Origin: a phage
DNA length: 64,000 nucleotides
Reading direction: 5' to 3' (one strand)
Sequence record: PZ386948.1
The notes under the pieces are model-generated. The model saw only the letters and a list, made by a program, of their open reading frames with translations, had not been told where the DNA came from and did no database searches. Made by a program: the position numbers and the translations under genes. Each line of letters starts with the position of its first letter. Within the stretch, counting starts at the first letter, position 1. Positions 34,942 through 37,507 of this stretch are shown piece by piece.

Positions 34942-35235
34942 TTGCGGCAACCTTGTCGGGGTTCCACCTGCTAAGGCAAGTGTTTGTACGAAACGCCGGG
35001 ATTCGAACCCGGTTATTAAGCAGTTGACGCTACTCAATATTTTTAAAAGGCCATATCTCGACCATATCCGAACGTTCCGTCAAAAACGCTACTCGGCTTA
35101 CGGCAAAGATATTTCCTCGAATCGATAATTCGGTGCGCCGTTTCTGCTGTGATGTAAGAGGGCATCAATAAACGCAAAGATTATTAACGCAATTCCTTAC
35201 TCAGGGAACATCAGTCCGACGACTTACCGGTAGCG
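34942..35235 (-). ncRNA. Structured GC-rich non-coding region, candidate stable small RNAs (T4 rnaC/rnaD-like position)
   Basis: No ORF; tRNA-like T-arm CCGGGTTCGAATCCCGG on the minus strand; sits between tRNA-Arg and the terminator as species 1/2 RNAs do in T4; boundaries approximate. Confidence 0.35.
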
Positions 35236-35245
35236 ACCCGGTTTC

Positions 35246-35596
35246 TTAATATTCTTTTAAAGCATCAATCTGTTTACGGCGTTCACGCCATAAATCAATT
35301 GCTTCATACGCGGATTCAACATTTCGAATTGGACGGCATTTATATAAAGATTTGTGATTTTGATATTGCGTAGATAACGGAATTTTATCTAAAAGGTCTT
35401 TACGTTCAAAGTATTCGTAACCATCTAAGCCAAATGAACGATTTTTGAGAAATTGCCAATGACCAAATTCGTTTTGAATATAAATATAATCCGCATGTTG
35501 ATAAAGTAAATTAATTTCACGAAATGAGATATGTTTTTCATATTCATTGAAGTAAAATGTTAAATCATGAACTACTAAATAAACATTACCTTTCAT
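35246..35596 (-). CDS. Hypothetical protein
   Basis: 116 aa with GAGG RBS, immediately downstream of tRNA-Arg. Confidence 0.5.
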   Translation of the reverse strand: MKGNVYLVVHDLTFYFNEYEKHISFREINLLYQHADYIYIQNEFGHWQFLKNRSFGLDGYEYFERKDLLDKIPLSTQYQNHKSLYKCRPIRNVESAYEAIDLWRERRKQIDALKEY

Positions 35597-35614
35597 ATTT
35601 TCCTCACTTATAAT

Positions 35615-35690
35615 TGGTCGAGGCAGTAGGGATCGAACCTACGACCTAGGACTTAGAAGGTCCTTGCTCTTCCTTCTGAGCTATGCCCCG
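35615..35690 (-). tRNA. tRNA-Arg (anticodon UCU)
   Basis: Manual cloverleaf: acceptor CGGGGCA/TGCCTCG, anticodon loop CTTCTAA, T-arm GTAGG-TTCGATC-CCTAC, 3' ACCA. Confidence 0.8.
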
Positions 35691-35694
35691 TAAT

Positions 35695-35781
35695 TGGGGT
35701 GACCGATGGGAGTCGAACCACCCGAGTCGCAATGACAATGGATTTACAGTCCACACCGCTACCTCTACGGGATAACTCCCC
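35695..35781 (-). tRNA. tRNA-Tyr(GUA)-like class II element, probably degenerate
   Basis: Canonical anticodon arm GTGGA-CTGTAAA-TCCAT, long variable arm, TTCGACT T-loop and 3' CCA, but acceptor and T stems pair poorly. Confidence 0.4.
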
Positions 35782-35794
35782 TTAATTCTTAATT

Positions 35795-35869
35795 TGGTGG
35801 CCCTGGGTGGAATTGAACCACCATCTGGCGATTATGAGTCGCTTGCTTGAACCTTCCAGCTACAGGGCC
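35795..35869 (-). tRNA. tRNA-Ile/Met (anticodon CAU)
   Basis: Acceptor GGCCCTG/CAGGGCC, anticodon loop CTCATAA, T-arm GGTGG-TTCAATT-CCACC, 3' ACCA. Confidence 0.75.
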
Positions 35870-35870
35870 T

Positions 35871-35946
35871 TGGTGCTGATTGACGGAATCGAACCGCCGA
35901 CCTTCTCATTACAAGTGAGTTGCTCTACCTACTGAGCTAAATCAGC
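35871..35946 (-). tRNA. tRNA-Thr (anticodon UGU)
   Basis: Acceptor GCTGATT/AATCAGC, anticodon loop CTTGTAA, T-loop GGTTCGATTCC, 3' ACCA. Confidence 0.8.
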
Positions 35947-35951
35947 AAAAC

Positions 35952-36041
35952 TGGCGGAGGCGATAGGATTTGAACCTATGAGTCGCCGGAGCGACTGCCG
36001 GTTTTCAAGACCGGTGCATTAAACCACTCTGCCACGCCTCC
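35952..36041 (-). tRNA. tRNA-Ser (anticodon UGA), class II
   Basis: 90 nt; acceptor GGAGGCG/CGCCTCC, anticodon loop CTTGAAA, long variable arm, T-loop GGTTCAAATCC, 3' GCCA. Confidence 0.8.
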
Positions 36042-36047
36042 AAATAT

Positions 36048-36698
36048 TTATATATTGTTAATTTGATTTAGAATTCTTTTTGCTTGAGTATGACTTACGC
36101 CAATATGCTTAGCATATTTAGACAATTCGCCACGTTTAGAAAAATCATATAATTTAGAAATTTCTATTCTTCTTTTTCTTTCATCCGCAGAAACTTTTGC
36201 TTCGTTTGCTTTTGCTATTTTACGTTTAGCTTCTTGAGAATGAGTTTTACCAGCAAAGCCATTCTTCATTAATCCATTTGAAGACCATCCTTTTAATTTT
36301 CCGTTAGAATGTGCCTTTTTAACACCCAATGAAATTAATTCGCGTTGCTGATCTGTCATAGGATAATTATTTATATGATCCCATCCACCTTCACCTCCAA
36401 GTTTTAAATTATACACATCTGGTCTATTTAAAAACTCTTCTGTGACAATATTTTTCTCGGCTTCAAGCATAGATTCTTTATCGTCAAAATACTCTAATAT
36501 TTCTTTAGAAAAATTTTCTATACCATATTTATCTTGGGCTCTTTTTAATAATTTACCAGAACCCATATATCCATCATCTAAATTTTCGGTAGAATGCACA
36601 CCAATATAAATTTTATTATTAATTTTATTTGTTATTTTATAAAGATAAAAATGCATATCAGTCCCTAATAAAGAACTGAGCGTCTCACGACGAGTCAT
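36048..36698 (-). CDS. segB: GIY-YIG homing endonuclease (SegB-like, within the tRNA cluster)
   Basis: 216 aa; N-terminal GIY-YIG module (YLYKITNKINNKIYIGVHST...GYMGSGKLLKRA); lies between tRNA genes as segB does in T4. Confidence 0.75.
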   Translation of the reverse strand: MTRRETLSSLLGTDMHFYLYKITNKINNKIYIGVHSTENLDDGYMGSGKLLKRAQDKYGIENFSKEILEYFDDKESMLEAEKNIVTEEFLNRPDVYNLKLGGEGGWDHINNYPMTDQQRELISLGVKKAHSNGKLKGWSSNGLMKNGFAGKTHSQEAKRKIAKANEAKVSADERKRRIEISKLYDFSKRGELSKYAKHIGVSHTQAKRILNQINNI

Positions 36699-36702
36699 AA
36701 AT

Positions 36703-36776
<74 letters not shown>

Positions 36777-36781
36777 AAATT

Positions 36782-36868
36782 TGGTGCGAGAAGTGGGACT
36801 CGAACCCACAAGGAAATCATTCCGCAGCATTTTAAGTGCTGTGCCTTTACCAATTTGACCATTCTCGC
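36782..36868 (-). tRNA. tRNA-Leu (anticodon UAA), class II
   Basis: 87 nt; acceptor GCGAGAA/TTCTCGC, anticodon stem-loop CAGCA-CTTAAAA-TGCTG, long variable arm, T-loop GGGTTCGAGTCCC, 3' ACCA. Confidence 0.8.
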
Positions 36869-36874
36869 GCTATA

Positions 36875-37507
36875 TTATTTATTACGTGAAAAAGACTGTT
36901 CTATCAATTCTGGACACTTTCGTTCTATCCATTTTCTAGCTTTTTGTGGGCTTATACCTATTATTTTAGCAGCTTTACTAACCCATCCAAATTTAGAATA
37001 ATCGATTTTAACTAATTCTTCGTAAATTTCATCAGTTAAAATCTTTTCATTAATATTTACCAGTAAATGATATAATTTATTATCATTAGCAATTTTAATG
37101 AATCTTTTATAGTTTCCGCCTTTACTTAAACCTAATGAAGTAATTGCAGATGATATAGTAGCCGAATTTAATAGTGCGTTTAAAATTTCTTCATCACTAA
37201 CATTATAACGCTTTTTATTATTTTTAATATTTTTACCAGCAAAAGTATCAGTTTGCGAATGGCAGTTTGGACATAATAATCTTAAATTTGATTTAAGATG
37301 ATTTTTGTTATTTCCATCAATATGGTCTAATTGCAGAACAATATGCTTATTTTGCCATTTTGAAATTTTACAAATTGCACACTCATATGGAAAAATATTT
37401 TCTTTTATTATTTTGTCTTTCAGCTTTCCTGTACTAAAATTTGGATGTTTTCCTTCAAAAATTTCAGCTAATTTAGTATCCATAATATGATTCCCAATTA
37501 TTAACAA
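36875..37507 (-). CDS. HNH homing endonuclease
   Basis: 210 aa; LQLDHIDGNNKNH...LRLLCPNCHSQTD (HNH with Zn-binding Cys); stop abuts tRNA-Leu. Confidence 0.75.
   Translation of the reverse strand: MLIIGNHIMDTKLAEIFEGKHPNFSTGKLKDKIIKENIFPYECAICKISKWQNKHIVLQLDHIDGNNKNHLKSNLRLLCPNCHSQTDTFAGKNIKNNKKRYNVSDEEILNALLNSATISSAITSLGLSKGGNYKRFIKIANDNKLYHLLVNINEKILTDEIYEELVKIDYSKFGWVSKAAKIIGISPQKARKWIERKCPELIEQSFSRNK

Follow-up and report, generated by a model that had tools for sequence, protein, structure and literature searches.

The 87-nt tRNA-like element lying between two tRNA genes of the phage DNA analyzed here is very probably the scar of a single 269-bp deletion between 11-nt T-loop repeats of tRNA-Tyr and tRNA-His. 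It constitutes a hybrid tRNA pseudogene (35695-35781, minus strand), composed of a tRNA-Tyr(GUA) 5′ part and a tRNA-His(GUG) 3′ part. The window, that is, the whole stretch of 64,000 nt that was analyzed, matches Shigella phage CM8 (Tequatrovirus, MK962750) at 100% identity, and the phage's GenBank record carries no annotation between tRNA-Met and tRNA-Arg. This assignment provides a precise annotation for the unannotated 104-nt gap in the genomes of CM8 and of Enterobacteria phage vB_EcoM_IME339 (hereafter IME339).

A tRNA-Tyr-like element with mispaired stems

ARAGORN called six tRNA genes in the window, all on the minus strand: tRNA-Leu (36868-36782), tRNA-Gly (36776-36703), tRNA-Ser (36041-35952), tRNA-Thr (35946-35871), a tRNA with anticodon CAT (35795-35869), and tRNA-Arg(TCT) (35615-35690). 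The last two genes, which were also identified with Rfam, border a 104-nt interval where the program made no call. Assignment of the CAT tRNA to Ile2 or Met follows the annotation of others (tRNA-Ile2-CAT in the relative Ozark). Read along the minus strand, the interval consists of a 13-nt spacer (AATTAAGAATTAA, 35794-35782), the element itself, whose sequence from 35781 to 35695 is GGGGAGTTATCCCGTAGAGGTAGCGGTGTGGACTGTAAATCCATTGTCATTGCGACTCGGGTGGTTCGACTCCCATCGGTCACCCCA, and a 4-nt spacer (ATTA, 35694-35691) that equals the native spacer between tRNA-His and tRNA-Arg. This analysis thus confirmed, at the exact coordinates and on the minus strand, the preliminary description of a class II tRNA-Tyr(GUA)-like element flanked by tRNA-Ile and tRNA-Arg.

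All the features from which this likeness had been deduced are indeed present, namely the anticodon arm, a long variable arm, a TTCGACT T-loop, and a terminal 3′ CCA. The anticodon arm (GUGGA-CUGUAAA-UCCAU) is canonical, with all five pairs formed around a 7-nt loop that displays the anticodon GTA at 35747-35745. The proposed mispairing in both the acceptor stem and the T stem was equally evident. In the canonical register, only three out of seven pairs can be formed in the acceptor stem, which therefore falls short of a regular 7-bp helix followed by a discriminator base, and the T stem retains three out of the five canonical pairs around a 7-nt loop. The corresponding values in intact tRNA-Tyr are 7/7 and 5/5. 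At default settings, ARAGORN did not call any tRNA at the element, and the Rfam tRNA model (RF00005) scored it at 22.7 bits (E = 0.13), below the gathering score of 29. Both results support the earlier view of a defective rather than a working tRNA gene. Other Rfam families produced chance-level matches to the element only, mostly as opposite-strand mirror images of tRNAs.

Comparison with relatives and the deletion junction

When relatives were searched with a 541-nt query, many close ones, among them KIT03, AR1, RB18, Ozark, teqhad, and FelixPlatter, matched in two pieces, with ~268 extra bases in between. The gene order at this site in the close relatives is Ile-Tyr-Asn-spacer-His-Arg, and alignment to KIT03 revealed that the element tracks tRNA-Tyr as far as the T loop and the 3′ end of tRNA-His from there on. 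The Ile-Arg interval of the window (104 nt) equals that of Ozark (373 nt) minus 269 nt, and is otherwise base-identical to it. The break could lie at any of 12 equivalent cut points inside GGTTCGACTCC, a perfect direct repeat of 11 nt. This sequence corresponds to a T-stem/T-loop motif common to the Ozark tRNA-Tyr and tRNA-His genes, and its sole remaining copy in the window (35709-35719, minus strand) marks the deletion junction, where the Tyr prefix and the His suffix overlap.

On either side of the junction, the parentage of the element is exact. The Tyr-only segment (element nt 1-62; 35720-35781, minus strand), encompassing the acceptor 5′ strand, the D arm, the anticodon arm, the long variable arm, and the first three nucleotides of the T stem, is identical to Ozark tRNA-Tyr (L007 1220-1281) and differs from its KIT03 counterpart solely at nt 41. 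The His-only segment (element nt 74-87, CATCGGTCACCCCA; 35695-35708, minus strand) matches the tRNA-His 3′ end of both KIT03 and Ozark without a difference, and contributes the T-stem 3′ strand, the acceptor 3′ strand, the discriminator C, and CCA. The whole element can thus be written as nt 1-73 of tRNA-Tyr plus the last 25 nt of tRNA-His, with 11 nt in common, such that nt 63-87 are His-identical. The tRNA likeness of the element is therefore no chance match, since these two parts reproduce intact Tyr and His genes.

The preliminary description had suggested a comparison with the tRNA-Tyr genes of other large myoviruses, and the outcome was twofold. Apart from the KIT03 difference at nt 41, the first 73 nt of the element, including the variable arm, are identical to the tRNA-Tyr(GUA) genes of Tequatrovirus members (Ozark, L007 1220-1306; KIT03, L001 1819-1902; T2L). 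Full-length identity was not found: the last 14 nt are replaced by His sequence, which differs from intact tRNA-Tyr at nine of these 14 positions and entails the loss of A73. Conversely, the last 25 nt match Ozark tRNA-His(GUG) (L007 1500-1575) throughout the T loop, the 3′ strands, C73, and CCA, and are followed by the same 4-nt spacer to tRNA-Arg, whereas the first 51 nt of that gene, with both its anticodon (GUG) and its 5′ acceptor strand, are missing from the element. The stretches CCCAT and CGGTCAC fail to pair because they come unchanged from tRNA-His, as its T-stem and acceptor 3′ strands, and face 5′ strands of tRNA-Tyr.

What the deletion removed comprises the 3′ end of tRNA-Tyr, the whole tRNA-Asn gene, the 114-nt Asn-His spacer, and tRNA-His from its first nucleotide to nt 51. 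ARAGORN calls the intact Tyr, Asn, and His genes of Ozark, whose Rfam scores are 30.3, 74.1, and 65.1 bits, respectively. The two parent genes thus belong to one cluster, the junction lies in sequence common to both, and the interval between the repeats is exactly the one lost. The compared sequences demonstrate the loss of exactly one repeat copy together with the DNA between the two direct repeats.

These findings also bear on the idea of a degenerate or decaying tRNA gene put forward in the preliminary description. Its first half stands, as the element is a defective version of tRNA-Tyr, and resemblance to a tRNA-Tyr with a damaged 3′ third is what gradual decay by point mutations, with no rearrangement, would predict. 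Nonetheless, all the differences from tRNA-Tyr are concentrated in the last 14 nt, where the 3′ strands are those of an unmutated tRNA-His, and the absence of the Asn gene, the spacer, and the 5′ part of tRNA-His is likewise exact. The exact match of a Tyr prefix and a His suffix refutes gradual decay, which is almost certainly wrong as an explanation. This case advises caution, in that relatives should be compared before 'degenerate tRNAs' in arrays are regarded as products of slow decay or as novel RNAs.

Inspection of the relatives yielded further observations on this region. A unit made of the spacer and tRNA-His is present between Asn and Arg in KIT03 (L001 1981-2178) and absent from ESh24 (L004 781-789), and the boundaries of this presence/absence coincide with tRNA 3′ ends (CGCCAAAT... 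versus ...CCCCAAT). By this sequence pattern, gain and loss appear to affect entire tRNA units and to take place at CCA-A(A)T junctions. A palindrome, GTGACAACTGTCAC, and a TTGACG...TTGAAC stretch occur in the 114-nt Asn-His spacer. The Ozark tRNA-His (L007 1499-1575) has a G1:C72 pair and C73, and T is encoded at position −1, so that the extra G−1, typical of E. coli tRNA-His, is not encoded.

Occurrence of the junction and possible fold of the RNA

We searched 50,697 phage records with a 46-nt probe spanning the junction, and it was fully covered only in CM8 and IME339. At least ~177 other phage records match the His side of the probe only, which identifies His genes whose T-loop is exactly GGTTCGACTCC; the substrate for such a deletion is therefore common. 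Searched as exact patterns, 32 and 28 nt of junction sequence had no match in either IMG/VR or the JGI metagenomes, and a control pattern for intact Tyr matched six IMG/VR contigs. Within a spread sample drawn from the 831 matching records, the two main arrangements were Tyr-Asn-His-Arg and Tyr-Asn-Arg, in addition to T4-like clusters with segB.

In IME339 (MH051915.1), the hybrid (L005 653-740) resides in a cluster with the order Gln-Leu-Gly-Pro-Ser-Thr-Ile-hybrid-Arg. No endonuclease ORF was found in this cluster, where ARAGORN placed the Gln-Leu-Gly-Pro-Ser genes back to back. IME339 and CM8 are distinguished by Tyr position 41 and by their alleles of the gene lying downstream of tRNA-Arg. 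The IME339 hybrid also ends differently (GGTCCCCCCCA versus GGTCACCCCA in CM8) by virtue of two changes, A to C and one extra C, and a 161-nt query revealed this 3′ variant to be private to IME339. Sharing of the junction by the two phages is no proof of common descent, because any deletion between these repeats yields the same junction; both independent recurrence and recombinational spread are possible. CM8 and IME339 were both propagated on E. coli BL21.

The occurrence data further allow an assessment of whether the junction might be an assembly or sequencing artefact, CM8 truly having intact Tyr-Asn-His genes from which 269 bp were lost in silico. tRNA genes do contain common repeats, just two records hold the junction, and the run of seven C at the IME339 3′ end is suspicious. 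However, an 11-nt repeat is far below assembler k-mers or read length, and the same junction was recovered in two genomes from different laboratories and species and in different cluster contexts. We therefore regard an artefact as highly unlikely.

We also considered whether the RNA could fold otherwise. With thresholds lowered to 90% (-ps90), ARAGORN reported a marginal tRNA-Tyr(gta) cloverleaf in a shifted register, which appeared neither at default settings nor at 95%. A valid cloverleaf in a different register, the finding that the preliminary description had set against its own reading, was thus obtained only marginally and at the most permissive of these settings. In the shifted register, the T stem GGUGG/CCAUC is fully paired (5/5) and closes an 8-nt T loop, the acceptor stem GGGGAGU/GGUCACC forms five out of seven pairs, with G.A and G.G mismatches and one G.U pair, and CCA follows the CM8 stem directly, with no discriminator base. 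RNAfold assigned to the best alternative register of the hybrid pairing probabilities of 0.00 for the acceptor stem and 0.002 for the T stem, compared with ~0.99 and ~0.95 in intact Tyr, all these values being derived from nearest-neighbour folding, which ignores the tertiary contacts and base modifications that stabilize tRNAs.

A hybrid that still works as a non-canonical class II tRNA in the shifted register, decoding Tyr codons or charged with some amino acid, would be in line with the tRNA-Tyr(gta) report at 90% and its fully paired T stem. It would also accommodate the private changes of IME339, which raise the shifted-register acceptor to six out of seven pairs and restore a discriminator C (C73) followed by CCA. 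Yet neither the CM8 nor the IME339 version is called at default or 95% thresholds. The acceptor is further weakened by its two mismatches and the G.U pair, CM8 offers no discriminator, and A73, which E. coli TyrRS requires, is gone from the hybrid. Together with the restriction of the junction to two phages among 50,697 phage records and its absence from IMG/VR and the JGI metagenomes, these data make a working tRNA very unlikely. As for the IME339 changes themselves, they could be due to either a sequencing error in the C run or selection on the hybrid. It is similarly very improbable that the hybrid is not inert, that is, that its shifted fold is under selection for recovery of an acceptor end and serves as a tRNA of non-canonical type or a Tyr anticodon-arm decoy against host tRNA-targeting defences.

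The preliminary description had further proposed a tRNA-derived regulatory RNA or a processing signal within the polycistronic transcript. An RNA of this kind, or a decoy, would be kept under selection, for instance, as a Tyr anticodon stem-loop that baits an anticodon nuclease, and both the intact anticodon, D, and variable arms and the location of the element within a transcribed tRNA operon would suit such a role. The proposal nevertheless found no support, since the minimum-free-energy fold of the element has no extra stability over shuffled sequence (z = −0.66), conservation extends to two phages at most, and no Rfam family matches beyond the weak tRNA hit. The deletion fully explains the sequence, which renders selection for a regulatory function extremely unlikely.

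Origin of the deletion, fate of the transcript, and related systems

The hybrid pseudogene very probably derives from an ancestor with the order Ile-Tyr-Asn-114-nt spacer-His-Arg, which many relatives have kept. For the molecular route of the deletion, unequal homologous recombination, slipped replication, and a double-strand break followed by single-strand annealing between the repeats are all plausible candidates. Once the Tyr 5′ acceptor strand lay opposite the His 3′ acceptor strand, neither the acceptor nor the T stem would form. The T4 tRNA cluster is transcribed as a single precursor (PMC2330249), and the hybrid would likewise still be transcribed within a polycistronic tRNA precursor. 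As the ATTA spacer ahead of tRNA-Arg is the native His-Arg one, RNase P is predicted to keep cutting at the 5′ end of that gene; at the hybrid, where no acceptor/T-stem stack can form, it is predicted to miss the 5′ end. The CAT tRNA upstream would consequently receive a trailer of ~105 nt instead of 13 nt, to be removed by endo- and exonucleolytic trimming, while the hybrid would act as a ~100-nt Ile-Arg spacer that is not aminoacylated and is probably degraded. This model makes the hybrid, most likely, a pseudogene that is transcribed but inert. The net effect on CM8 is that Tyr, Asn, and His, three tRNAs of the phage, were lost in one step, which is probably tolerated because the tRNA region of T-even phages, non-essential in T4, is dispensable in laboratory hosts (PMC2330249).

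A double-strand break could in principle be provided by a homing-type nuclease such as SegB. T4 SegB recognizes GGTTCRANTCC and cuts near CCAR at tRNA 3′ ends, with a preferred site in T2L tRNA-Asn and weaker sites in other tRNA genes, Tyr included (PMC2330249). The repeat GGTTCGACTCC fits this published motif, and CM8 encodes a SegB-like GIY-YIG protein between tRNA-Gly and tRNA-Ser (ORF 36698-36048, minus strand). Its N-terminal catalytic portion (117 aa) is 83% identical to T4 SegB, whereas the C-terminal half is unrelated (weak NUMOD3 match), and its target site may therefore differ. This unrelated C-terminal domain, the presence in KIT03 of the same SegB-like gene beside intact Tyr-Asn-His genes, and the lack of any such gene in the IME339 cluster all weaken the idea of a SegB-type break as the trigger of the deletion, which we deem unlikely. 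The SegB-like ORF occupies the site of tRNA-Pro in T4 and Ozark, and no tRNA-Pro remnant was found there.

Rearrangements of this kind have precedents. McClain and Foss, writing in Cell in 1984 (38:225), are said to have described T4 hybrid tRNA genes, products of unequal recombination or of deletion in the tRNA cluster. Those hybrids and that of CM8 are alike in phage group and cluster, and in that the 5′ part of a gene is joined to the 3′ part of one downstream at a common sequence with loss of the intervening genes. The T4 examples were reportedly selected laboratory mutants, whereas the CM8 hybrid is a natural, unannotated one in a sequenced isolate. Its two partners, Tyr and His, are both absent from T4, and, unlike the T4 hybrids, it would be unable to form the acceptor or T stems. 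The finding is thus an ordinary one, a new unannotated instance of a type of rearrangement already described in T4.

Spontaneous deletions flanked by direct repeats are also known from T4-like phages, most of their 5′ borders being located in tRNA genes, and those recovered as ToxIN escape mutants, under selection to evade abortive infection, cover 6.5-10 kb (PMC5449768). The CM8 deletion shares with them the short direct repeats as bounds and conserved tRNA-gene sequences as recombination hot spots; however, it is only 269 bp long and has no known selection behind it. It offers a natural example of phage tRNA repertoires being reshaped by deletion, with the universally conserved T-loop motif serving as the hot spot.

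The window's tRNA cluster is, judged by sequence, of the T2L type and not of the T4 type. The CAT tRNA resembles T4 tRNA-Ile over only ~20 nt, and blastn found no match between the tRNA-Arg genes of the window and T4. tRNA-Gln is missing from the window, where homology to KIT03 ends after the first seven Gln nucleotides (TGGGAAT, 37496-37490, minus strand). An ORF (36875-37507, minus strand; 203-210 aa) extends from this point up to 6 nt ahead of tRNA-Leu; it is named "HNH endonuclease" in the CM8 record, has no Pfam match, and occurs in the same arrangement in Ozark.

Kinship of the element with the small non-tRNA RNAs of the T4 cluster, rnaC (species 1) and rnaD (species 2), was discarded, as their sequences are unrelated to it and their homologues lie elsewhere, within 35246-34987. 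An E-value search of 35000-37500, which covered all but the final 13 nt of rnaC (34987-34999), returned no Rfam family for these homologues. Both are ~99% identical to T4, with rnaC at 35125-34987 and rnaD at 35246-35132 on the minus strand, and the first base of rnaD is the last stop-codon base of a 116-aa ORF (35246-35596).
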